The notes below the pieces were generated by a model. The model ran no database searches. It was not told the DNA's origin and was given only the letters and a program-made list of their open reading frames with translations. From positions 7,316,001-7,380,000 of the forward strand of contig NC_073382.1 of assembly GCF_028641065.1 (NCBI RefSeq): a stretch of DNA of 64,000 nt. Direction: 5' to 3'. This document shows positions 8,183-45,415 of the stretch, piece after piece (the stretch's first letter is position 1; each line of letters begins with the position of its first letter). This DNA comes from Leucoraja erinacea. Lineage: Eukaryota. Both the position numbers and the translations under genes were made by a program.

Positions 8183-8393
8183 GTGTGGGAAGGAAATGCA
8201 GATGCTGGTTTAAGCCGAAGATAGACACAAATAGCTGAAATGACTCTGCGGGTCACACAGCATCTCTGGAGAAAAGGAATAGGTGCAGTTTCGGGTCAAG
8301 CCTGAAGAAGGGTCTCGACTGGACACGTCACCGATTCCTTTTCTCCAGTGATGCTGTCTAGCCCGCTGAGTAACTCCCGCTTTATGCGTAAAG
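8183..8393. mobile_element. Palindromic Penelope-related short element
   Basis: Inverted dimer of the same unit, flanked by ctagaatctacgt / ctagaacctatgt. Confidence 0.8.
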
Positions 8394-14735: not shown

Positions 14736-15022
14736 AGTGGGCACAGTTTGAGGACATGGGGTAGGTTATTTAGGACAGAGGTGAGGAGAAATGTCTTCAC
14801 TTGGTGACAAACCTTGAGTATTATGTACTCTGAACTATTCTCGGCTATTCTGTAAGCTGTGAAAGCTTGCGCATTGTGTGCATTCACAACACTGATTAAT
14901 AGACATAAGAGTTAAAGGACTCGAGTGTTGTGGGTGTAGTGCTGGAAAATAGCAACAAGGTACAAGATGAATCATGAAAGTTATGTAAAGTGGATCAAGC
15001 TTGAAGGGTGAAGTTTGTCTAG

Positions 15023-15116
15023 GTAGACAAAAGTGCTGGAGAAACTCAGTGGGTGCAGCAGCATCTGTGGAGCGAAGGAAATAGGCAACGTTTCGGGCCC
15101 AAACCCTTCTTCAGAC
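15023..15116 (-). mobile_element. ~95-bp Penelope-related short retroposon with hammerhead core
   Basis: TSD TGAAGTTTGTCTAG (15009-15022) / TGAAATTTGTCTAG (15117-15130); minus strand begins GTCTGAAGAAGGGTTTGGGCCCGAAACGTTGCC. Confidence 0.85.
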
Positions 15117-15835
15117 TGAAATTTGTCTAGTCTAGCTGAACCCATGGTCTATTTTATTTTTAATTGGATAAGCATTTACGGGGCACAGATTTCTTATAAT
15201 TGGTTTATGTTTTAATTAGTTGGGTATTGAATTTAATCCTGCACATGGATCTGTTCAAGATTAAAATGTTTTTAGCACATTTTTAACAGTATGGATGTTC
15301 TAAAATTGATATAGCATAACCTGGTTAGGTCCAGACAATTATAGTTCCAATAAAATTGATTTGCCTGGGTTATGTCATTTTGCGTTAAATAGATAGTATT
15401 ATAGTAAAAAATGAATTAGTTTAAATGTTAGGGGATACGGAGTAATTTATCATGTAAGATTTTATTTTCTATTGCCCATTCTGTGATAAAAATATTGAGA
15501 ATATAAAAGTGTGAAAATAGATCATTTTATCATAACATTTTGGTTAGATTTAATATATTTTACCCATGCTGACTCAAAAGAGATTTTTTATTTATTTCTA
15601 GGGAAGAGGTTCATATATAGAATGCAAATAGCAATTTAAGATTTGTGTAACCTTGAATACTAGACGCAGACATAGTCAAATACTTAAGTCTGTTCAAAAT
15701 AAGAAGAAAAAAATCTGTTTACTACACTGGTTTTATTGATTACTTTCTCAAACTAATTTCTTATTAATGGACCCATCATTTTTGTAGGGTTAGCTGATGT
15801 TTCAAGTAAGATTGCTGGCTGAGAATTTCTATTTT

Positions 15836-17499: not shown

Positions 17500-18690
17500 A
17501 TCCCACCACAAGCCAAATCGCCCCGCAACGTGCCTTTCCACCTTCTTCAGGGTTCACTCACTACAAGCCTCTGTAATCTGCTCATCACATCCCCTGGCAC
17601 TTTTCCCTGTAACCACGGGAAGTGCAATATTTGTTTCTACACCTTCTCCCTCACAACCTTCCAGCTGAGCCATAGATTTGCATGCACATCTTTTAACCTC
17701 GTCCACTGCATTTAGTTTAGAGATACAGTGTGGAAACCTGCCCCTCAACCCACCAAGTCCGCGCCAAACACCAATCACCCAATACACCAGTTCTGTTCTA
17801 CATACCATGAACAATTTGCAGAAGCTGCAATGTGAAATTGCAGCTACATGGAAATTGGAGCAGAAAACAAACATCCTCCTTTTACATTTAACCAAACCTT
17901 TATAGCTTGCATATGAGGACGCCATCCCTTTCTCTTTTTTTCCTCTTCCTTTCTGCTACGTCTACTCTCAAGATAAGGCCTTCTATTTCAGGGCCATCCT
18001 AATGCAGCCAAAAGTACCCCCCCCCTTCCTTTGATCCATCTCGGATCCTGCCAATTTTGCCCCTTTTTTTTTCTTTTTCTTTTTTCCTTCTCCTTTTCTT
18101 CTTTTTTTCTTCCTTTTTTTTTCTTTTCCCTTTTTTCACTTGTTCCTCTTTTTCCTCTTTTCTTTTTTTTTTTCTGTTTTTTTTTTTCTGTTTTTCCCCC
18201 TTCCCCCCTTCCCCTTCCCCTGGGGGTTCCATCCACCTACTGACCATATTACACCCAGCAGATTCCACACCCAACCTGATTCCATCTGCCCATTTTTCCC
18301 TTAACAGTTCCCATTGTTGTCATCTTTATATATCAGATTACAGCACTAGTGACCTCTGTGCCCATATTTATCATTCACCAGCAGCTGTCACTACCTTCAC
18401 TCTCGCCTCCCCCACCTCGATTCATCTGCATTTCTTTGTTTCCACCTATGATCCATCTGCCTGTCTCCCAACTCTACCCCTCCCCAACCTGGCTCCTTCT
18501 GTCTCATTCTTTCTTGATTCCTGCTTGGCCCACCTATCACTTACTGACCCCCTGTCTCATTCCTTTTGTTTATATATTGGCTGACTTCCCCGTCCCCTTT
18601 CAGTTCTGGCACAGGCTCTGAGCCCAAAGTCAACAGTTCCATTTCCCCACAGATGCTGAGTTTGTTCAGTTTGTTTAGTGCTCCAGAGTT
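17500..18690 (+). mobile_element. Penelope-like retroelement remnant (Zn linker / GIY-YIG region and pyrimidine-rich 3' part), interrupted by a SINE fragment at ~17711-17820
   Basis: SPGTFPCNHGKCNICFYTFSLTTFQ..HRFACTSFNLVHCI and EIAATWKLEQKTNILL resemble the PLE PGTFPCxxxxCxxC..FTCTSxNLVYCI and RKLEEQHLIF motifs; degenerate 3' terminal motif at ~18610-18690. Confidence 0.75.
18060..18220 (+). repeat. Polypyrimidine (T/C) low-complexity tract
   Basis: Almost pure T/C; produces the spurious F/S-rich and K/R-rich ORFs. Confidence 0.9.
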
Positions 18691-18964
18691 TTTTGCGCCT
18701 CCTTTCTTCGCTCTTCCATCACATGGCTTACATTTTGCTATTTTTGTTTATCCCAGTAATGTGCCTCTGGACATGAAATGCAAGTACAAATGTGTTTCTA
18801 TAGCAGAGATGATTTTCCAAAGTATTATTTGTACTTTCAACCTACAATAACGTGGAAGGCCATCAGTCCCAATATCCCCTAAATTCCCTGTACTCTAGCT
18901 TCTCGCCATCAACAGCCTTTGATTTCTTTTTTTCGCAATGTAACAACAGAGTAATTTACAGTAG

Positions 18965-19058
18965 GTACACAAAAAAATGCTGGAGAATGTCAGCGGGTGC
19001 AGCAGCATCTATGGAGCGAAGGAAATAGGCAACGTTTCGGGCCGAAACCCTTCTTCAG
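18965..19058 (-). mobile_element. ~95-bp Penelope-related short retroposon with hammerhead core
   Basis: TSD ACAGTAG (18958-18964 / 19059-19065); minus strand CTGAAGAAGGGTTTCGGCCCGAAACGTTGCC. Confidence 0.85.
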
Positions 19059-19626
19059 ACAGTAGCCATTTAATCTACCAACATTAATATTTGTGTAGGA
19101 AAGAACTGCAGATGGTGGTTTAAATTGAAGATAGACACAAAATGCTGGAGTAACTCAGCGGGTTCAGGCAGCATCTCTGGAGAAAAGGAATGGGTGACAT
19201 TTTGGCTGGAGACCCTTCTTCAGACTGACTTTAGTATGTGTGTTTTCTTTCCACATCCCAGCCAGAAACCCATGTAGCCATTGGAAGAACATGCAAACTC
19301 CCCACAGATCTCATTCAAGTTTAAAACTGAACCTGGTTCCATGGAGCCGAAGCATATTTAGTTTTGCTTACATCATCATTAAGAAGGGGAATGTTTATGG
19401 GTGTCTTTGTTTTGCAAGGAAGAATAGTGTTGGGGTCACATGGCAGGCCAAACCAGTTAAACTTGTTCTACAAGACTCTGCAACAATAACTGATGTGTAA
19501 CCTGGGTGCTAATTGTATCAGAAAAAAAGCTAAGGATAGGAAATGCGGTATTTTCAGCGCCAGTACAGACATGCATGTTACCATGTTGTTGCTGCTGCTC
19601 CTACAGAAGCTTTTTCTCTTTTGCAG

Positions 19627-27100: not shown

Positions 27101-27956
27101 CCTTCACAATATTAATTATCAGGTTGCAATTGTGACCACATTTTCATTGTGAAATGTCTTTGTAGAAGTGTATACAATTACAACAAGTTATAGAAATAGC
27201 AGTTCTGTTTTTGGAAAGTGTTGAGAACCTCATTTCCTCTTGAATGATAAAAAGCAGAAATGAAGCTACTTTTACAAATTCTGCTCTAGTTTCTGCAGTG
27301 TGGTCATGTTCTCAAGATCTCAGAAAAATATCAAATGATCTGTAATTTCATGTTTTGATCTTCACAGCATAATATAGTACAGTAAACTTTCGTTATAACA
27401 GGCCATAGGAGGGAGGGAGGGAGAGCAGGAATGGTGTCTCTTATTGCGTTATTGTTGATTTTCCATTGTAACCGAGTAGTTTATTATTATTGAGACTGAA
27501 GAAGGGTCTCTATCCAAAACATCACCCATTTCTTCTCTCCAGAGATGCTGCCTGTCCCGCTGAGTTACTCCAGCATTTTGTGTCTATCGTCGATTCAAAC
27601 CAGCATCTCCAGTTCTTTCCTATATAGATTCTTATTGTATGTAGTTGAAGCAAAGACCTGCAAATTATGGTTAATGCACAAAATAACACAAAGTGCTGGA
27701 GTAATTCAGCGGGCCAGGGCAGCATCACTAGAGAACATGGACAGGTAACGTCAGGACCCTTCAGACTAATGAAATCTGCTGAGTTACTCCAGAAATTTGT
27801 GTCATTAATCCTGAGAAGTGTGAAGAGCTGGAGGCAAGAAAAGATCAGGGCCAGCCACAAATGACCTCAGGCAGGGTATCCCATTGTTGGTTAGGGAAGG
27901 TGTGATCCCGAGAGGAAAACAATGAGGAGAACTGTGAAACTTGTAAAACGACTTAA

Positions 27957-28650: not shown

Positions 28651-29851
28651 AATCATCGTCTCCAACATTTCACAGGGATGGATTCATTGAGTGTAGACTG
28701 AACTCCCCTCTCCCCCTGCCCCTATCCCTCCTTCTCCACTCCCCCTGCCCCTCCCAGCCCCCCTCTCCCCCCCCCCTTTCCTTCCCCCTCCCCCCCTCCC
28801 CCCCCCCCTCCCCCCTCCCCCCCCCCTTCTTCCCTTCCCCCCCTATTTCCCCCCCCCCCCCCCTCCCCTCTCGTTGCTTCACTCTTCTCCACTCCCTCCC
28901 CCTCCCCTCGCATCCCCTTCTCCCATTCTCCAATGCCCCACACTTTCCCCGACGCCCCCCATTTGTGGACCCTGACAGTGACAGCTAGATCCCACTAATA
29001 GTACTGCACAAAGGCCACATCTGTTTTAGTAACATTGACTATGGCATAAATGCAGACTTTGAGAACAACACCCTCCTAGCTTCAAAAGTGTGTAGTGGGT
29101 ATTTAGACTCAGTGGCCGGAGCAGGTGGGTAGCACTGGTACATTGACAGCATTGCCTGTACCCAGTTGAAAAGCCGCTGCCTCTGGGGGTTGGAGAGACC
29201 ATTGGAAGAGAGATCTGTTTCTGGGGCAACTCGTGGCCAACAGTTTAGTTCCCATGAGGAGCCGGCAGAACATTCGGGGTTCGAGTCCAACCCCTGGGGC
29301 TCCTGTGTCACAATTAGTTCAGAGATACAGTGCCCTTTGGCCCACCGAGTCCGCTCCGATCAGTGACCCCCCCGCACATTATCCCACACACGTTAGGGAC
29401 AATTTATACTTATACCAAGCCTATCAACCTAGGGCTAGGGTTACGGTTAGGGCTCGGGTTAGGCCTAGGGTTAGGGTTAGGGCTACGATTGGGTTGGGGT
29501 TTCCTTAAGTACTTCAAAGGCACACAGGTTTGTATAAATTGTCCCTAGTGTGTGTGTGTGTGGGATAGTGTGCAGGGGATTGCTGGTCGCAGGCTGGGTC
29601 CACAAATGGGGGGCGTCGGGGAAAGTGGGGGGGGGGGGGGGGGGGGAGGTTGGTGAATGGGAGGGGGAGAAGGGGATGTGAGGGGAGGGGGGGGGGGGGA
29701 GTGAGAAAGGAGAGAAGAGTGAAGGGAGGAAGGGTTGGGAAAGGAAGAAGGGAGGGGGGTGGAGAAGGAGGGATGGAGGCAGGAGGGGGTGGAGGGGAGG
29801 TCAGTCTACACTCACGGAATCCATCGCTGTGAAAAGTTAAAGACAGTGATT
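28651..29851. repeat. Long inverted repeat pair with C-rich / G-rich arms
   Basis: 28651-28972 is the reverse complement of 29596-29851 (tttcacag.gatggattc..gagtgtagactga..cactttccccgacgccccccatttgtggaccc). Confidence 0.9.
29429..29499 (+). repeat. Degenerate interstitial telomeric array (TTAGGG/CTAGGG)
   Basis: CTAGGG CTAGGG TTACGG TTAGGG CTCGGG TTAGGC CTAGGG TTAGGG TTAGGG CTACGA TTGGG TTGGGG. Confidence 0.85.
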
Positions 29852-32800
29852 CAGCCAGAGACTGCCTGACCCGCTGAGTTACTCAAGCACTTTGTGTCTA
29901 TCTTGCTGGAGTAACTCAGTGAGTCAGTAGCATGTCCTCCAGGGGTTTGCCTGACCCGCTGACTCCAACGCTTGTCCTTTTTTGTAAGCCAGCACTTGCA
30001 GTTACTTGTTTCAACATTTGGCGGTCGAATTGCTGTTTACAATTAGACTATTTTGCAGAATAAGTAAACTAGGGGTCATTATTCCATGTTTTCCAAGAAT
30101 GATTTTCAAAAAAAACTTATTGATTCAGCTTATTTGGCCCCATGATAGTATTTCTATGCATTGAGAGTTTTAAATGCAAGCGAGTACCTACTACTGAGTG
30201 ACTTTTACTGAGAAATCATGCAGAGAGATTCTGCTTTTTTATAACAAAGTTCTGGAGCTGAGCCACTTGATCCTAATGGGCCTTAACTGTGTGTCTGGTT
30301 TGGATCAGTGTACATTCTTCTAAAACAAGCAGGGGTTTGAGTCGGGCTGTGTTGTGTGTTACGCTAGGCCTGCTCAGCACCTAAAATAGTCCGTTGCAGC
30401 AATCACTCATACACACAGATAGGCATGTAGATACTTGAGTGTGTAATTAATCTGCCTCTCATTTGCAGCCCCCTCCCAACCCCACACGCTTCCTTGGCTT
30501 TTCGAACAGAGCATGTGATAACTTCATCATTACCTTCCTTGCAAAATCTAATCCTTAGCATATCTAAACTTGTATGGAGCAGGTAACTTTAATGATATTC
30601 ACAACATATTTGTGAATATGTTGCACAAGCGGTGCAGGCTCGAAGGGCCGAATGGCCTACTCCTGCACTTAATTTCTATATTTGACATTGGTGTATTAAT
30701 TCCTTTTTCAAATTTTGAGCAAAAAAACAAACTGCTGGTGGAACTCAGTGGGCCAGTCAGCATCTGTGGAGTGAAATAGACAAAGTTTTGAGTCTGGACT
30801 CCAGTCTTTTATTTCAGCATATGCAATCTGTCTTTTTAATCACTTCCATAAAAAAAAACACAAACAAGCAGTTCAACTGGACTCTGAGCAGGAAATATTT
30901 AAATATTAATACATCTCAAAGTACGTTCATTGGCTATGGAGGATGTTGCACCTTACATTTTTGCGTTAGCAGATATGTCAATGTTACATTTACCACAACA
31001 TTTAAATTGAAGATGGATTTTATAATAAAGGTATGACTATGAAGATAAAGCTGATACAAAGCAGCTTGATCTCTTCAGTCATGAAGCTGAGCCAGTCGAT
31101 GACATAAAAATGGACAGAATGTAGTGGCAATTATTTAGTGTTGGTGCAAATCTTATGTATGTGATGAAAGAAAGAAAAGGCAAATAGCAACAAATCTTAG
31201 TGCTGGAATATGTATCTCAGCGATTCAGACATTATCTCTAGAGGACATGGATAGTTGAAGTTTTTCGTCGGAATCCACCTTCAGACTGAAGGGTCCTGAC
31301 CCAAACATATATCCATGTCTTCCAGAGAAGTTACCTGATCCACTGAGTTACTCCAGCACTTTGTGTTTTGCTCAAGATTCCAGCCTTAACATTTGCTTGT
31401 TTCTCCATAAATGTTGAGAACTTGTAACCACTGGAACCTGCTATGCCATTCAGTGATAGTGTTGAAACAGGCCCCTTGCCCACACTGTCCAAAAGGTCCC
31501 AGCTGCACTAGTCCCACTTGCCTGCGCTTGGTCCATATCCCTCCAAACCTGTCCTATACATGTGCGATAATTATTTCAATTTCACTTCTCTCTTTTCTCC
31601 ATTCACCATTAACTCACTTACCATCCAAACATCCGTGTATTACATCCTTGAATATATTCAACACCTCGGTGTCCAGTATAGAGAATTCCAAAGATTCACA
31701 ATCCTTCAAGAGTAAAAACTCCTGTGTAGAAAGGAACTGCAGATGCTGGTTAACACCAAAGATAATCACAAAGTGCTAGAGTAACTCAGTGGGTGAGGCG
31801 GCATCCTCCTGTTGTATCTTAAATGGGGAAACCCCTTATTCATAGTCAGTGACTCTTGTTCTTAAATTGGCATATAAAAGTGATCCAGTGGCACCAGAAT
31901 ACCAGGCCTTAAAGTGAGAAAATAATAAATTGCATGCATATATATATATATATATATATATCGCCTTTAGCCAAGATCAGACTTTTCAGAGACTGAAGTT
32001 GCAAGATGCTGATGAAACATGGCGACTCTAGGCCTGGTGTCCCAGAAGCAGATTTACTTATAATGGTTTCACACTTTCATTTGCGTATGATTATATAACA
32101 TGATTTAACTTTTCACACTATCTCGGTGTATGTGTCAATAATAAACTGAACTAGAATCCCCACCAAATGGAAATGAGCTCTCAGCATGTTGCCTAGATGT
32201 GATGACAATACACTTTACAATGTAGGCTTTAATAATTGCAATGTGATCATTGGAGGTTGTTGTTGCTATATTTAGGTTATAATAACACAATTCATTGTAT
32301 GCATATCTGAAAGCTAACATGCACGTGCAATGGACAAATGGGACTTTAGCATTTTATTACAGGAAGTTTGGATTACACGAGTAAAATAGTCTTGATGGAA
32401 TTATATGGGGTTCCAGTGAGACCACAAATGGAGTATGGAGTTCAATTTTCATCCCCTTTGGTATACAGTTCAGGGACAATCCATCAGAACAGTTTCTGAA
32501 GAGACAATAGGCTAGGTCTGTATACTTTAGAGTTTATAAAAAATAATCGATTACCTTATTAAAGAGTATCAAATTCTTTGAGGTCTTGACAGGATAGAAA
32601 TGGACAGTGTCATTCCTTTGGCTAAGTAGTTTAGATCCAAGGGGTACTTTTAGAAGAAGGGATAGACCTAATCTGTATCCATGCCTTTCAAAGCTACTTT
32701 CTCCTCGGCAGCCACATTTTGTCTTAACCATTGTTTGTGTATTCGGTCATTTGTTTTGCACTGAAGTGAAGTATGGACCATTGGAAATTTACGTTGCATT

Positions 32801-33177
32801 TTGTCTGCAGGTTCTACTTGTTTCTTTGCGACTAATAACTTATGACTGGTTTTCTGTTACAAAATTTGGTTGTGACACTAGTCCAAAGGAAAGTCTCATT
32901 GCATCTACACTATCAATCCCTCCTGTTTGACACAGTAGAATCGTTTCCCATTCTTCCAAATTCCAGGGCAATACACTCACACCTGGAGTCAAGCTGGTGA
33001 AAAGATAATCTTAGTGCAAAATAAGCAAATCTCATTGTAATGAAGTCTCAGAAAATTAAGTTAATCTGACAAAAGTCTCGCCCTTCTCATGATCTCATAA
33101 TTGCTCATGTGCTTGATGACACTTTTTCATTCTCCACTGTTTAGCTTTATGAGATTGCACTGTTTACTTTAGGTCTT

Positions 33178-33274
33178 AGGCACACAAAAATGCTGGAGAA
33201 ACTCAGCGGGTGCAGCAGCATCTAAGGAGCGAAGGAAATAGGCAACGTTTTGGGCCGAAACCTTTCTTCAGACT
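33178..33274 (-). mobile_element. ~95-bp Penelope-related short retroposon (core mutated)
   Basis: TSD TTTAGGTCTT (33168-33177 / 33289-33298) with A-rich filler; GAAA changed to AAAA. Confidence 0.8.
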
Positions 33275-36200
33275 TTAAAAAAAATAGTTTTAGGTCTTTA
33301 TCTATTCAGTTGAACGTACTTGTGTACTTTCACTGCCTTTTATTGCTCCCAGAAAATTGCTTCTAGTGGTCTTTAAGAACCTATCTTGACTTCATCTAAT
33401 CTATCATCTACATTGCAGCCTTGGGCAATATCGGTTGCCCTACCCCACTCTTCCACCCGCTGATGCTGACTGCATCTTGCCTCAAGACGTCTACTGAAAC
33501 CATTGTCTATACTTCTTTTACCACTATAGATGATGCATGCTTACATGTTTCCCATGGTTCACCTTCTATAAGGTTGTGTTCAACCAAATCTTGTCGTTAT
33601 ATCTTAAATTACAATGTTTTGTTCACACATTGCCTTCTCTGCTCATCCCTTGGTTCACTTTTAATCAAAAAGCAGCTTAGTTTAAAGATAAATTCTTCCA
33701 TAGCCTTGACCCACGTATCTTCTGCAGCCCTATGAACCACACCAAGGCTCTGTGCTCTCGTATTCCCTTTTAAGATTCTTAAAATGTACCCGTTTAATTA
33801 AAATGTTGTCCTCTGTATTGTTATCTCCTTTTATGGTATGATATCACATCTAGTTGCTCTTGATTGTTTTCTTTGAAAGGTGCTTTGATAAAACAGATGT
33901 TTCTGCAACAAACAACATGTTAATCTGAATTGAGATTGAGTGCAGTTTGAAGAGTAAAAAATACTCTACATGGTGTATATTTTGTGAGGAAGAATCTCCA
34001 GAAGACATGTTGATATGGCTATCGGTGTGTGCAGTATTTTGTGTGAACCATTGTGCTTGTGTTCAGGGTGAACAACAGAAAAAATATAGCAACTGTTGGT
34101 GTCCACTTTTTCAAAGTCGATTGCAAGCAAACAATTGTGATGTTGTGTTGCTGATTAGTCTTCTGTCTGCCCAAGAATTCTCAAACAGTGTATCTCTTAG
34201 ACACTGGGGATAGAGATGTGGAATAACATGTTTTAACTGATAAACATTTTGCAGGTGATGAAATAAAGATAGAAACTAGAGTATCATGAAAATTTTAAAA
34301 GTAAGACAATTCTATTTTGAAGTGTATATCTGAATTACTATAACCTATTGAAGGCCAGAGAGCTCAGCATGAAGTGTGTGTGGTGGTGGGGGGTGGGGTG
34401 GGGGGAAGAGAATCACCATGCATAATAAAACGTAGCATTTTAACAGTGATCTACAGTGTTGGTTTGTAAATGCTTGAAATTCATCAAAACTGGTTACTTT
34501 GAGTGTAGAAGATAGAAGTCTGGATTGGTGCTAAATTGTTAGCAACTTCAGGATTTCTCAATGTACACATTGCATCACCATGTAATGTTCACAAACACTG
34601 GAGATTATTAGAACAATTAAACAGTCCTTCACCTGACATAATTAGGTGGCAGTCCTGACCAAAGATGTTATAGCGGAGCTCTAAGATCTTTAGTCCTGAC
34701 TCAGTCATGAGCTTCCATTAAGTGTCTACGGTTCACAGTTGCATTTCCTCTCCATAACCTGAGCACAAAACTTTGTGTAGTAGGATTTAATGCTATCAAA
34801 GGAGGAAGTAAATGTAATAGTGAAGCAATCCTTTCGTATCTTGGCAGGAAGCAAAATTTACACCAGGTTTCAAGTATATCACAGAGCATTTCTTCGTTCA
34901 CAAAACCCTTCTTCTGTGTCTTAATTTGAAGAATGCTAACGTTCTTATTACATTGGCAGCAGGGTAAAACTAATCCAAAATTACATCTGCAGGCAGTTTC
35001 CTATTTGATCTAGGGATAAATCTGTTGGAATCTTAGTCAAAATTAGATATAACGTGTATCAGTTTTGATATCATCAGAGTATTTGGAAAAACAAAATGCA
35101 TTTTCTGTATGAAGTGACTAAATGGGATTTAGGAGTGCATTAAACATGTCTATTTGCCCTTTAACTGTATTCAAGTTAACACCTGCTGAAATGATAGTTT
35201 CATTTATTTTGGCAAACTCGATATATTTAAAAAAAAACAAGCAGGAAAAATAACTTCTTCAAACTTAAGTTCTACAGTATTCTAGTGTTGTAGCCTGTGC
35301 CAAAGAACAGTCTGCAGTACGACACCTGGCCTCCAGAATACATGTTCAAGCCAAGAATTTAAAATTTCTTCATGTAGGACAAGCTGGGTCATTTACTGCC
35401 TGCCTGCCAGCCTCAGCTTTGCAGAACTGTATTTGAGGAAGGTATACTGGTACTGATATTTTAAATCGTTTTATAGAAAAGGCTACAATTATTAAATGAG
35501 AGGAGCAAACTTAAGACCTTCCAGCTCTGATTCTAAATGTTGTTTGTATCTGTTTAATTTGAATGAATGTTTGGGTAATTGTCTCACAGTTTAAAATGTA
35601 CTGTGGGTGTTTTACATTCTCCTTTTTCTCTCTTTTCCACTTCTTCAAATATATATATATTAATGTATAACTTTTCAATGGAAAGCAGAACTGATCCTGG
35701 GACTCCTGCCAATGGTGTTTTTTGAGCAAGATGCTGAGAATTGAGCACAGCCTGCCTTAACCTCTCGAGTTTTTTTAAAAATAGAAGCGTGGAAGTTCTC
35801 CATGTATATCAGGCGTACTCCTTGCTTTCACTGCCAATTCCCAACCCCACCCCTAAGATGCTCAGCTCAAATTGGAATCTCTTGCAGGACTACCCAATGA
35901 GTCCTAATTTATGTGATGAACTTGGAGATTGCTGAATTGTAAAGTAGAAGAATATTCATGTACAAATATGTAACTTTCCATTCCGAGGCTGTGGATAATG
36001 GCTAGTTTAAACTAGTCTAACATGATGGTAGACACAAAATGCTGGAGTAACTCAGCGGGACAGGCAGCTTCTTTCAAGAGAAGGAATGGGCTGACATTTC
36101 AGGTCCAGACCTTTCTTCAGACTGCTACTAATGTGATAATGGATATTGTTTGCATATTTAAAGACAATCTAAATTTCTAATTTTATGGCTTGGTTCTCAT

Positions 36201-37490: not shown

Positions 37491-38223
37491 GTAAGAATTC
37501 TATTTGCAATTATTCAAATGGCTGTAAGATGTCTTCTGTAATATGCACATAGGTGGAAACATTTAGATTTTTGTTTTATGATGGAGTGATGGTCTGCAAG
37601 TAACATGTGTGATGTGAATCATTTGGATTAATGGCAATCAAAATCTGGGGATGGAATCTATCCTTTGTCACAAGCGTTAATTGAGCAGTGTAGTAGAATG
37701 GAACTGAATTGTGGAAATAACGTGCAAAGAGTGGCAGCTATTACATTGATCATGCATCTTAAACTGAAGGAGATAGATTTCTGCTGCTTTTCCACAAGTA
37801 TGGATAATCAATGGTGGATGGATTGCTGTACGTATTGTATCTTAATGTTATGGCACTTAGTATTAAGATCTTAGTATTAGCACTTCAGAATTAAGATCAA
37901 GTATTAAAATTGATTAGAGTTTTGTCTTGGGTCAGCTTGACAAAGTTAGCAATCTGATTCAATATATGAAAATAAAATCAAAACTCAGATGCTGCAATCG
38001 TAAATGAAAATGCTAGAAATATTCAGCAGGTCAGGCTGCATCGTAGGAAGAGAAGCAAGTGAAGATTTTAAAGTTGGAAACCCTTTGTGGGAATTGCAAG
38101 AACTTGAAATGTTGGCTGAGCTCTTCCCACAAATGCAGCATGACTTGTGGAGTATATCCAGTATTTTCTGTTTGTGTGTTGAATGTTGTTATACAAGTTA
38201 TTTTAAAAGAAGGAGTAGTCCAT

Positions 38224-38318
38224 GTTAGACAAAAGTGTTGGAGAAACTCAGTGGGTGCAGCAGCATCTAAGGAGCGAAGGAAATGGGCAACGTTTCAGGC
38301 TGAAACCCTTCTTCAGAC
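38224..38318 (-). mobile_element. ~95-bp Penelope-related short retroposon with hammerhead core
   Basis: TSD TAGTCCAT (38216-38223 / 38319-38326). Confidence 0.85.
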
Positions 38319-40393
38319 TAGTCCATCCCTGGAAATGCTCAGCATGTCAGGCTGTATCTGAGGTAGCAGTTCTGATGAAACGTTATTAGTTGCCACAGAT
38401 CTGTGTAACCTGCTGAACATTTCTAGCATTTCTCGGGTTCAAATTTTGGTTAAATATTGGTTAAATTCTTCCAGCTTCCTGGCCAATTTTTATTTTTATC
38501 GTTTAAATAAATGATTTGATCATTAGTGTGCGTCTATTTGTGTATCCTTGCTGTTTGCAGGATAGGTGGTTAAAGGGGAATGAATTTTATACAGCATGGC
38601 CTACGTTTTAATGCCACTCACATTTTCAATCTTTCCATTGCCAGTGTATCTGTACACTGTGGATGGCTCGATTGTAATCACGTATTGTCCTTCCGCTGGA
38701 TGGATAGCATGCAACAAAAGCTTTTCACTGAACCTCGGAGTGAACTAAACTCAAACTCATTTTGGAGGGCTTCAGTAAAATATGGAGAGCGGGATTAAAG
38801 ATAATGGAATTATCCACATGTGAAGTGAAATGATTTGATGGAATAAATCATTATAAATTTAACATGGGACAACAGAAGGTTAAATAGAGCTTTGCAGATT
38901 AATTTAACATTTTGTGTTGCTTTGTCCCTATAACAATACTTGATCATGATGCAATAAAAGGTCGGCACTACTTTGTTTAAGAATTTTGAATAAACATTAG
39001 AAGAGGCAAATCATCATGGATACGATGCCATTCTGCCATGACCTAACTTGCATCACAACATCTCTATGCCTGCTGGACTACATTTTTTCTTGGTTAAATC
39101 ACCTTTAACTAAAACATTTGCATTGTATGGAGATCCCTCCTTGGCCTCCCTCAACCCCACCCACCCAACCCCATCCCTACACCCTTCAGTGATGTGTTCT
39201 CTAATTCTGGCCTGTAAAGATGTTTGAATATAATCATTTCATTTACAACCATACTTTTAGATTGGAATTCCCTCAATAAAACATCAACATTTCTCCTTAA
39301 ATCCTAACCAAGACCACGATTTTGGACATCTACCCTAATATCACCTTGTGTGTCAACTTTAGTTAACTATTATCCTGGGAATCTTTACACTGCAAAGTGG
39401 TTGTGATGAGTTTTGTGCACATCCAGTGAAGATCATGCATGGTAGAATTACCATTTCTGTGCTGTAATCCATTAAGGCATAATACTTTGAAATTTATAAA
39501 AAAGATTGTTCTGCTTTGAACATTGAGGCAAATGTTTTGGGGCAAATGGGGGAGGAGGGTGTGAGATGGTCTGGTAAATCACATTTTAGATAATATTTTG
39601 CATTAGTGAAGTGTTTGACACTGGCACAAATATTAAATCAATTTTATTTAGAAAGTTATTTCTAAATATATGCAAATTTTTTGAGACTATCAACATTTAC
39701 AGCATTTAATGTTGTTGCACTAGCCTTCAGAATTATGATTTTAAACGTAATGGGCATTTGGAAGTTTTCATGGTACCTCGATTGCCTATAATGTTAAGAT
39801 GACAATATTAATAGGTCAATTGTGAAATTAATTGCTTCCAGTGCAGTTAACACACCATAGAGGTTCTTCAGAATGCATTTAAAATTGGGAGGGGGAGGGA
39901 GGGGGGTGAATTAAATTTCCATAACTTACAGAAACTGCTTGATTTTCATGTTTCATCAGTTTATAATTGCAGACACTTCTCGTGTGTTTCTTGCCAGATC
40001 ATTTTATTCCTCCACCTCCTGACATGATAAGTATTTGTACTTGAAGTTTAGGAATATTACAACAATATTATGCATTCTTGGCTGTTAAGGTTGATATGGC
40101 ATTGTTCTGTATGTGTGTGTGTATGTTGCCATTGCTGATATATTTGAAATAACGAGGGTGCAAAATTGCATTATTTTCAAACTTCCTGCCAGTCATAAAC
40201 TCTTCTCTGCATTGATACTTTCTTTGAAACATAATGCCGAGAGGCCAGACAAAATGGCAAATTCTAATTATAGCTGGATTTGGCCACCACAGGCTTGCCT
40301 GATGCCAAACTGATTATTTGTCCAATCAACTATACCTGCTATTGCTACACAAGATGTAAACTAATTAACATTTTGCTTTTCTTTGCTGCCCAG

Positions 40394-43320: not shown

Positions 43321-44727
43321 ATTTAAGTTGGTTATTTAATGTTTGAGTGTTAAAGTCGGGTTAATTCATTGATATTGGTTGAATTCTTTTATACATAAAA
43401 AAAAAAATTATTTGATAAAGGCTGAGATCAACACTACTTCTGAAGTTGCCCTTTAACTTGACCGCCCACACAAAATAACATAATTTCCCCCAAAACAACC
43501 ACAGATGGTTGTCGGCAGGAGTTTGTTACGACTTATGTAACACTTGCAACTCTGTTATTGCTGAGTTCTACTTACAAAAATTATCAATGTGAATGAATCG
43601 AAGTTCACAAAATGATTAGACAGGGTCTGTTGAGTAAATTAGGGCAATTGTACTTCAATATTTTTGGACGGCATTTAGTATTTTGGGAAAGTGTTGTTTT
43701 CCATTGGATAAATAGTGTGTCGGCATGGTGCAGCTTTGACAAATGAAATCCTGCGCAAAAGTTTTTTTTTAAAAGGCGACGTATCGATTTTCTATCAGTA
43801 TAATTCACTTAAGGAAGTGGAAAGCTGGTCCAAATGAATACATACAACTCCATCAACCTGTGCTAGGAAAATCCTGATGGAGAAGAGAATATAAAAATGG
43901 ATTAGCCTCTTGTATCTCCGCTTGTTGAGTAGTCAGCTTATTATCCATATTCATCTGGAAAGTAGAAGAGACACAGGAGGGCTGCTACTCCCTGTGAAAA
44001 CGTTTCAGCACTGGTTGCCACCTTCAGGAGTGGAGGCACAAAAATGCAAGTACTAAAATGGAAACAGCATGATATGCCTACTATTTGGTTTTGAGTCTGC
44101 CAATGCATTTATCCATTGGTTAACTGTTGATCAACAGCTAATCAATGCACTATTGACATTGTTGGCACCTGTGGATCAAATGCCATTTCTTCTGCCAAGT
44201 AGGGAGATCCCAGTGTATGTGCGGTCTATTCCTAGCAATTTTAATTTAAATACCGAGCAAAAAAACTGCTGCAGGAAAATGGTCGGCCAGGCAGCATCTG
44301 TGGAGGGAAATTACAGCCGATGTTTTTGGTTGGGACATTCCAGAAGAAGGATCAGGACCTAGAAGGATCTGTTTTCCATCACAGATGCTGCCTAACTCAC
44401 TGAGTTCCTCCAGCCTTTAGTTTTTTTACTCAAGGTTTCAGCATCTGCTACTATTTATGCCTCTAAATTTAAATGCTAGTGCCTGTATTATAAAATACTG
44501 AGGTTAATGATGGGTACATTTAATGTATTGAGCCCCCTGAGCAATTTTGAAATCTGATTGAAACCAGTCGTTGCATTCCAAGACTAAAATGGTGTAAGAA
44601 GTTCTGTTTTGGTTTGGGTCCAGCCCAGATTTCCATTACATCATCAGTAATGAAATGGAAACAATCTAAACAAACGTTTGGCAAAGTTTTATTCTTGGGA
44701 GTTAAGAGTTGACTCTTATTTTACCAG

Positions 44728-45189: not shown

Positions 45190-45415
45190 ATGTGTAGGAA
45201 GGAACTGCAGATGCTCGTTTAAACTGAAGATGGATAAAAATTCTGGAGGAACTTAGCAGGACAGGTAGCATCTCTAGAGAGAAGGAATGGGTGACATTTT
45301 GGTCGAGACCCATAGACATTCTGAAGAAGGGTCTCGACCCGAAACATCACCCATTCCTTCTCTCTAGAGGTGCTGCCTGTCCTGCTGAGTTACTCCAGCA
45401 TTTTATGTCTATCTC
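45190..45415. mobile_element. Palindromic (inverted dimer) Penelope-related short element
   Basis: Two inverted copies of the ctgaagaagggtctcgacccgaaac..gctgagttactccagca unit; perfect 10-bp TSD ATGATGTACC (45180-45189 / 45416-45425). Confidence 0.85.

Follow-up and report, generated by a model that had tools for sequence, protein, structure and literature searches.

The 64,000-nucleotide stretch of Leucoraja erinacea DNA analysed here (the window) contains, on its minus strand, a 96-base insert with a minimal hammerhead ribozyme motif, which raises the question of which element produced the insert and whether ribozyme cleavage set its ends. The insert is the hammerhead-bearing leader of an autonomous Penelope-like element (PLE), and we consider it likely to be a copy made by the element's reverse transcriptase (RT) from an uncleaved transcript, with synthesis beginning within the leader and running off at the 5' end.

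The hammerhead motif

Every box of the hammerhead core that the first-pass annotation had placed at 19028-19060 (-) was found in the minus-strand letters as described, and the following parts were read from the sequence:

19059..19060, minus strand: stem I, 5' arm (G2.2, U2.1)
19051..19058, minus strand: CUGAAGA core box (19058-52) and an extra A (19051) ahead of stem II
19039..19050, minus strand: stem II, 4 bp with a 4-nt loop (GGGU-UUCG-GCCC)
19031..19038, minus strand: GAAA box (19038-35), then the palindromic ACGU replacing helix III and U16.1-H17 (C-G-U-U, 19034-31)
19029..19030, minus strand: stem I, 3' arm (G1.1, C1.2; GCC = 19030-28)

Besides the CUGANGA and GAAA boxes, the motif possessed G10.1-C11.1, an extra nucleotide (A) after A9, U16.1-H17 and, at 15.2-16.2, a palindromic ACGU that stands for helix III and would allow a dimeric one, which bears out its earlier description as a Penelope-type minimal type I hammerhead; stem I indeed comprised 2 bp only. 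The UUCG loop was closed by U-G and not by C-G, the closing pair of the extra-stable form. PMC4209133 counts the extra nucleotide among the traits of PLE minimal hammerheads. Judged by its letters, the motif fits the sequence definition of a PLE minimal hammerhead, its cleavage activity being putative. With +1 taken as the A of TCAGTCTGAAGA, the predicted cut would fall after +31, between 19031 and 19030.

The hammerhead pattern matched twice in the window (19035-19058 and 15091-15114), a count reached by none of 100 shuffles (mean 0.00). A hammerhead descriptor asked for both boxes, G10.1-C11.1, UH and a stem II no shorter than 3 bp. It matched at 49 distinct places in a 1.064-Mb sample made up of the window and 100 stretches of 10 kb, 20 of which adjoin the window; 48 of these places belonged to the Penelope leader family, against 0-1 matches per shuffle in five shuffles. 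The hammerhead core at 19028-19060 is therefore real and far above chance. An Rfam scan of the window returned no hammerhead at E<=1; a minimal motif without helix III may escape Rfam models.

Copies of the repeat in the window and genome

The repeat had 28 HMM matches in the window and 403 in the 1.064-Mb sample. No tandem array of the repeat unit was present in the 64-kb window. The copies and flanks discussed below were:

18965..19060, minus strand: short Penelope leader/pseudo-LTR (pLTR) copy, +2 to about +97, young subfamily A (HMM match 19061-18965)
19060..19065, minus strand: upstream copy of the likely target-site duplication CTACTG, its G doubling as the element's first base (sequence)
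18959..18964, minus strand: downstream copy of the likely target-site duplication, marking the first 3' end site at about +97 (sequence)
19093..19226, minus strand: subfamily-B copy with a ~35-nt tail, ending at about +133; core broken, G12 lost (sequence and HMM)
15020..15117, minus strand: subfamily-A copy, core intact, loop UUUG, 9 exact nt of flank duplicated (pattern search and flank comparison)
38223..38319, minus strand: subfamily-A copy with G10.1-U11.1, not intact, duplicated flank ATGGACTA (sequence)
36024..36124, minus strand: subfamily-B copy with A10.1-U11.1 and U15.2 (sequence and HMM)
33177..33274, minus strand: subfamily-A copy with A10.1, G12 lost (sequence and HMM)

The copy at 18965..19060 was 95-98% identical to genome-wide copies, several of which run upstream into a GIY-YIG ORF; its CTACTG duplication, being 6 nt long, by itself falls inside the chance range of the control. 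Further intact cores had been reported at 15084-15117 and 38286-38319. The former does have an intact core, with UUUG instead of UUCG as its loop, but in the latter G10.1-U11.1 replaces the conserved G-C, and the copy fails the hammerhead descriptor. At 36091-36123 the reported change in stem III was present, together with a second departure, A10.1-U11.1.

The broken-core copy at 19093-19226 and the intact copy share a strand, the former lying 27 nt upstream of the latter's duplicated flank; speculatively, the AUGU of the broken-core copy could pair with ACGU in a read-through RNA and offer the intact core a cut site. Head-to-head pairs at 8217-8389, 27493-27766, 31199-31371, 44260-44426 and 45227-45415 make long hairpins, two of which gave chance miRNA-like Rfam matches, and such hairpins are possible sources of double-stranded RNA inside host transcripts. 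A degenerate telomere-like (C/T)TAGGG repeat of 9.5 copies was also seen at 29429-29485.

The 403 matches formed 310 clusters, and 291 of the matches lay in 0.8 Mb away from the window. Extrapolation to the 2.19-Gb assembly carrying the window gave a genome load of 0.6-0.8 million copies, with about 100,000 intact (descriptor-passing) motifs. At >=80% identity, mean cover was 100 over +1..+100 and 0-9 over the ORF. The 188 copies anchored at the core (215 of the 403 matches were left out for truncation, excessive divergence or closeness to the end of a stretch) comprised 86 with unique flanks, 57 with an inverted partner, 36 extending upstream and nine direct repeats, and the 93 adjacent pairs among the 403 matches were mostly head-to-head (70 vs 19 direct). 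Head-to-tail hammerhead units, the layout of retrozymes, were thus confined to these 19 direct pairs and to nine of the 188 anchored copies. Each of the three youngest clusters held copies with endonuclease sequence upstream (7, 7 and 4), and in the three oldest (79 copies) no member had detectable endonuclease sequence upstream.

The parent Penelope-like element

Many of the 30 best genomic matches ran upstream via a pyrimidine tract into an ORF ending in a GIY-YIG domain, and the upstream translations matched Pfam PF01541 (GIY-YIG; E 8e-5). A search with an RT piece gave 14,906 candidate places, with open frames of up to 906 aa among the 150 scored, and near-identical PLE copies with frames of up to 1193 aa were present in the genome. 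The L062 copy had the order 1.2-kb direct pLTR, hammerhead, ATG at +168, ORF and, 115 nt past the stop, the hammerhead again; its direct pLTR was 98.9% identical to the 3' end, and the unit measured 3933 nt. A link of the repeat to full-length Penelope termini, which had been set beforehand as a test, is thereby present, the hammerhead lying in the pLTR of L062. In full partial-tandem copies, the segment sat between two units, ~115 nt past the first one's stop codon and 167 nt ahead of the second one's ATG. The 1193-aa frame of L260, whose first residues came from an inverted piece, possessed a C-X4-C-X2-C linker, an RVT_1 domain (E 3e-6, under the curated cut-off) and a weak GIY-YIG match, and several of 20 long copies had inverted 5' partners. 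The nearest named protein relatives were from sharks and rays (65-73% identity); a PDB search gave 0 matches.

On this sequence evidence, the ~95-nt repeat is the leader/pLTR end of an autonomous PLE and not a separate retrozyme. The earlier reading of the repeat as a retrozyme-like non-autonomous element is not supported, as the copies are single or head-to-head, consist of PLE terminal sequence and end away from the ribozyme cut. The hallmarks of EN+ PLEs were all found, namely a single ORF with RT and, at the C-terminus, a GIY-YIG domain, partial tandem pLTRs, inverted 5' copies and an optional 30-40-bp tail. The CX2-5CxxC linker between RT and EN, which marks Neptune/Nematis in the relevant parts of PMC8557442, appeared in the translations as C-X4-C-X2-C. 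By linker motif and layout, the element bears the hallmarks of an EN+ PLE of the Neptune/Nematis type. The window itself contains a decayed piece of PLE ORF from the Cys linker region at 17557-17712 (+; 41% identity, E 8e-8).

Ends of the copies

Among the 90 exact-match loci listed (the first 30 per search, all on C1), 77 had their 3' ends at two sites, 50 at +92..+103 and 27 at +128..+139, and the unbiased sample showed the same two peaks. At the 5' side, 72 of the 90 loci listed stopped within -9..+1 and 18 extended by at least 49 nt, with none between. Of 46 young matches (>=88% identity), 23 began at -3..+4 and six further upstream; five began in a second cluster at +14 that arose from fold-back inversion. 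The main 5' cluster, at -9..+4 and immediately ahead of the core, is about 13 nt wide, and microhomology and filler bases blur it. Weighted by genome-wide word counts, about 55% of young exact-match copies were short. Target-site duplications of at least 7 nt flanked 27 of the 86 unique-flank copies, compared with 9.2% of mismatched controls; a looser search, run with no control, found duplications in 39 of 59 young short copies. Contigs of three other organisms (runs X15, X19 and X20) showed the same drop in cover at +1, with loose ends at +1/+2 in X15.

TCAGT or CCAGT was kept in all subfamilies, with a variable tract upstream and a C-rich tract from about -4. The exact 30-base word (+1..+30) occurred 14,855 times genome-wide, with C in 12,494 cases, A/T in 1,610 and G in 751. 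A cap-templated extra G is faint at best, as G made up 31.8% of non-C bases at -1 against a background of 27.2%, in a confounded comparison. In L303, L304 and L307, leader position +2 was joined to the ORF end or to +165 via GT microhomology, and these joins are likely template switches at the RNA 5' end.

Ends were distributed differently in copies bearing the ORF. Of 96 ORF-start copies, 94 were mapped; 10 of the 44 reaching +7 stopped at -8..+7 (an L296 artefact being reassigned by eye), and about 50 of the 94 had 5' ends scattered over +8..+206, a spread that a single start site does not explain. Stopping at +1 was commoner in short copies (23/29) than in ORF-bearing copies (10/44; p 7e-6, computed with 22/28), the two sets differing in age and some long loci being duplicated or near-identical and not independent. 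The lower frequency of such stops in ORF-bearing copies argues against a pure RT road-block.

No 5' pile-up was found at the predicted cut, where two of the 46 young matches began (+34/35) and one of the 94 ORF-bearing copies (+32). The latter, L195 (G000:C12:56126430-56129780), is a young copy (99%) that starts exactly at the predicted cleavage product and is a candidate insertion from cleaved RNA, within chance as one of 94. The cleavage site was rejected as an insertion boundary, one such copy in 94 being expected by chance at the local end density. RNA reads (runs X22-X24) had no start or end peak anywhere; since 64-94% of the aligned reads entered unlike sequence, they reflect dispersed copies and not the transcript of the element itself, and the libraries were fragmented, which makes them an insensitive test for cleavage ends.

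Predicted fold and conservation of the ribozyme

According to ViennaRNA, which ignores tertiary contacts, the hammerhead fold came at a cost of 5.2-13.1 kcal/mol when forced on five leaders linked to the ORF, and of 7.5 kcal/mol when forced on the window copy. In the monomer, stem II had a predicted pairing probability of at most 0.02, because the core purine run is engaged by +37..+42 or by the loop together with GAAA. A competing hairpin (GAAGGG with UUCCUU) was favoured, and a stable hairpin was predicted over about +6..+45. The hammerhead fold is thus disfavoured in the predicted monomer, in agreement with the doubt previously expressed about monomer activity. A two-copy fold in ViennaRNA did not recover the ACGU dimer; Lunse et al. 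2016 reportedly dealt with dimer cleavage of PLE hammerheads. By analogy with PAc, the Poseidon element of Anolis carolinensis, cleavage would need protein, or a partner through ACGU. An extended stem I (-4..-1 with +53..+56) was visible by eye in some subfamilies but not all, is absent from copies starting at +1, and was discarded.

The motif was intact in 62 of the 188 anchored copies. Pair 2.1-1.1 was U-A in 107/188 and U-G in 47/188, pair 2.2-1.2 was G-C in 135/188, and pair 10.4-11.4 was U-A in 120/188 and U-G in 38/188. H17 was C in 137/188 and U in 43/188; 15.2-16.2 was C-G in 99/188, the remainder being mostly CpG decay, and G12, in a CpG, was kept in 69%. After insertion the core decays at a flank-like rate, and anchoring on +2..+13 inflates the apparent conservation of the first box. 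With subfamilies clustered on +32..+95 only, the differences between them inside the motif (+16, +17, +20, +31, +32) concerned only loop II, the pairs 10.4-11.4 and 2.1-1.1 (U-G/U-A) and H17 (U/C), all permitted by the hammerhead model, and the only core difference was CpG decay of G12 in the oldest clusters. The core differed at 1/13 positions and the flanks at 19-20/64, which was not significant (p 0.16 and 0.10). All covarying changes were one-sided, with no two-sided change at the lineage level.

Proposed mechanism and alternative explanations

By analogy with the Anolis Poseidon element (PMC11167929), the PLE protein would bind the leader RNA, nick the target DNA and prime cDNA at two internal sites, which would account for the optional ~35-nt tail. 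Internal initiation has been demonstrated for a Poseidon element only, and not in this clade. The genomic 3' sites (about +97 and +133) would then be the RT starts, and the genomic 5' cluster would mark where the RNA begins, probably by Pol II initiation at TCAGT, which is initiator-like by the initiator consensus. PLE promoters with Inr-like sequence are described in parts of PMC2377424 and PMC3846280. RNAs starting at or near TCAGT would yield run-off cDNAs of 95-135 nt and, from these, SINE-like, probably dead-end insertions, and starts in the downstream unit of tandem transcripts would yield long copies. The short copies would probably be unable to propagate, as they end before the sequence downstream of the RT starts. 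In the folding model the ribozyme would mostly be kept off by the competing hairpin, cutting only with protein help or as an ACGU dimer, and its cut would not set the ends of most insertions.

Several other processes could leave short copies with discrete ends. An independent, hammerhead-processed retrozyme or SINE-like family mobilised in trans by the PLE would account for a copy number far above that of the ORF (cover 100 vs 0-9), for discrete ends with target-site duplications and for the oldest clusters without detectable long partners, and vertebrate retrozymes are related to pLTRs in the portion of 10.64898/2026.07.22.740005 available; however, the ends miss the cut site, head-to-head pairs outnumber direct ones (70 vs 19), the three youngest clusters include members with upstream endonuclease (7, 7 and 4), and the short copies lack the region downstream of the RT starts that PAc required in vitro, so that we regard such a family as improbable overall, though the three oldest clusters may represent a non-autonomous lineage. 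Slightly less improbable, yet still unlikely, is that the 5' pile-up marks a barrier, be it a road-block to RT or second-strand synthesis at the C-rich tract or leader hairpin, or a stop of 5'-3' decay at a protein-bound leader, with the copies as hot-spot truncations. The C-rich tract from about -4, the stable hairpin over about +6..+45, the fold-back cluster at +14 (5/46) and the many ends of ORF-bearing copies throughout the leader would all suit a barrier. A fixed one would not, however, stop 23/29 short copies and only 10/44 ORF-bearing copies at +1 (counts with which a decay stop is compatible); moreover, no ends occurred from -10 to -48 among the 90 loci listed, and TCAGT/CCAGT is kept across subfamilies though the upstream tract differs.

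Splicing was also considered, with the pyrimidine tract and CAG/T as an acceptor and the short copies derived from spliced RNA. Acceptor-like sequence is present at +2/+3 and donor-like AAG/GTATG at the start codon of most subfamilies, Penelope of D. virilis offers a precedent in an intron ending at helix I, and the L309 locus is consistent with an exact join of +165 to +3 across about 16 nt. Against this, the junction patterns had 5 + 5 matches genome-wide compared with 14,855 for the plain word, the joins of L303, L304 and L307 keep G+2 and look like template switches, the short copies share no upstream exon, and no such joint was among the best 15 of 116 joints in raw RNA reads. Splicing was rejected as the main route to the 5' end, given the scarcity of junction matches and the joins keeping G+2, and we hold it to be highly improbable. 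The donor-like AAG/GTATG overlaps the start codon (L206-L300) in subfamilies whose protein identity ranges from 55% to 97%, and the youngest have lost it. A further alternative, compatible with the run-off model, concerns the ribozyme alone: the hammerhead likeness may be a non-functional relic whose sequence is kept only as a promoter or protein-binding site. The 5.2-13.1 kcal/mol penalty on the monomer fold, the absence of two-sided covariation, the non-significant core test and the failure of 8/9 Xenopus retrozyme dimers to cleave (as given in part of 10.64898/2026.07.22.740005) point in that direction; on the other side, all subfamily changes in the motif are hammerhead-allowed, the sole core change is G12 CpG decay in the oldest clusters, and the homologous motif of PAc cleaves in the presence of protein, with C3/G8 rescue (PMC11167929). 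We judge a relic doubtful, if the most plausible of these alternatives.

Run-off from internal starts on uncleaved RNA is thus the reading that we prefer for the insert. To a wider claim we give an even chance: PLEs that begin reverse transcription close to the 5' end of their own uncleaved mRNA would mass-produce sterile, SINE-like leader copies of fixed length, and this one by-product would account for the thousands of minimal hammerheads scattered through vertebrate genomes, place the transcription start at the ribozyme's first base and demonstrate on a genome-wide scale that a competing hairpin keeps the ribozyme off while transposition proceeds.

Relation to known elements

Published work already covers PLE-terminal hammerheads, single motifs scattered by truncated PLEs, the tail and also internal initiation. 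In the literature searched, no paper was found on this family or on short PLE copies with a fixed 5' end; Lunse 2016, Repbase/Dfam and some supplements and figures may already list the motif. The motif resembles the PLE pLTR hammerheads covered in parts of Cervera and de la Pena 2014 (PMC4209133) in its core boxes, extra nucleotide after A9, G10.1-C11.1 and palindromic 15.2-16.2, and in its setting, since those also lie in PLE termini and are mostly dispersed singles, ascribed there to truncated PLEs. Stem II (4 bp) and stem I (2 bp) are shorter here than in S. mansoni (7-8 and 4-5 bp), and stem I of D. virilis also has 2 bp; coelacanth has ~4,000 motifs and X. tropicalis ~9,000, compared with the ~100,000 intact motifs extrapolated here. 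Cartilaginous fish are not mentioned in those parts of the paper, nor is a fixed 5' end.

The element shares with PAc (Frangieh et al. 2024, PMC11167929) the placement of the hammerhead where pLTR meets ORF, a pair of 3' end sites separated by about 35 nt and ending in AC-rich sequence (the tail), the probable use of uncleaved RNA as template, and the absence of RNA ends at the cut. In Anolis Poseidon the two 3' end sites were shown to be internal RT starts, and PAc ribozyme mutants left insertion unchanged, with no RNA-seq ends found at the cut (PMC11167929). In PAc, however, the start codon lies inside stem II and the RT starts inside the ORF, whereas here both lie in the 167-nt leader, and the Neptune/Nematis Cys linker of this element sets it apart from Poseidon PAc. 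Mass short run-off copies are absent from the main text of PMC11167929; its Fig. S2 maps genomic ends and may bear on the point. In L181, L237 and L296, a conserved leader stem over +52..+118 (AGAUGCUG with CAGCAUCU) encloses the first 3' site; it lies ~15 nt before the second, a plan that resembles the AC-rich stem-loop of PAc.

Non-LTR retrozymes, as presented in sections of PMC7229834 and 10.64898/2026.07.22.740005, share with this repeat a type I hammerhead, short non-coding copies and kinship to pLTRs. Those retrozymes are head-to-tail arrays, the ones in PMC7229834 having canonical ribozymes that give circular RNA; by contrast, the copies here are dispersed and minimal, frequently stand head-to-head, and do not have their boundaries at the cut.

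The role of the hammerhead in Penelope elements is an open question (PMC8557442, PMC11167929), to which this genome brings a young family whose full-length copies are near-identical and whose insertion records number several hundred thousand. These records point to uncleaved RNA as the usual template, and indicate that initiation at two internal sites, as seen in one Poseidon element, also fits an element with a Neptune-type linker; they supply exact coordinates, with a proposed start near +1, a predicted cut at +31 and proposed RT starts near +97 and +133. For annotation, such repeats should be classed as PLE termini and not as SINEs or retrozymes. If the run-off reading is true, a by-product would have seeded about 100,000 intact hammerhead motifs here and, more speculatively, transcripts could be affected were even a small share of the intact motifs to cut inside host introns, whether as dimers or with protein.

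Within EN+ PLEs, the single ORF, RT, CX4CX2C linker and C-terminal GIY-YIG domain, together with partial tandems, inverted 5' copies and a 30-40-bp tail, agree with Neptune/Nematis as characterised in portions of Craig et al. 2021 (PMC8557442), from which the element differs in its long ORF (about 1200 aa) with a Pro-rich low-complexity N-terminal part. In L260:1476-2880, L061 and L062, the N-terminal helical part of the ORF is separated from RT by a long low-complexity insert, rich in Pro and Ala, that carries short tandem peptide repeats.
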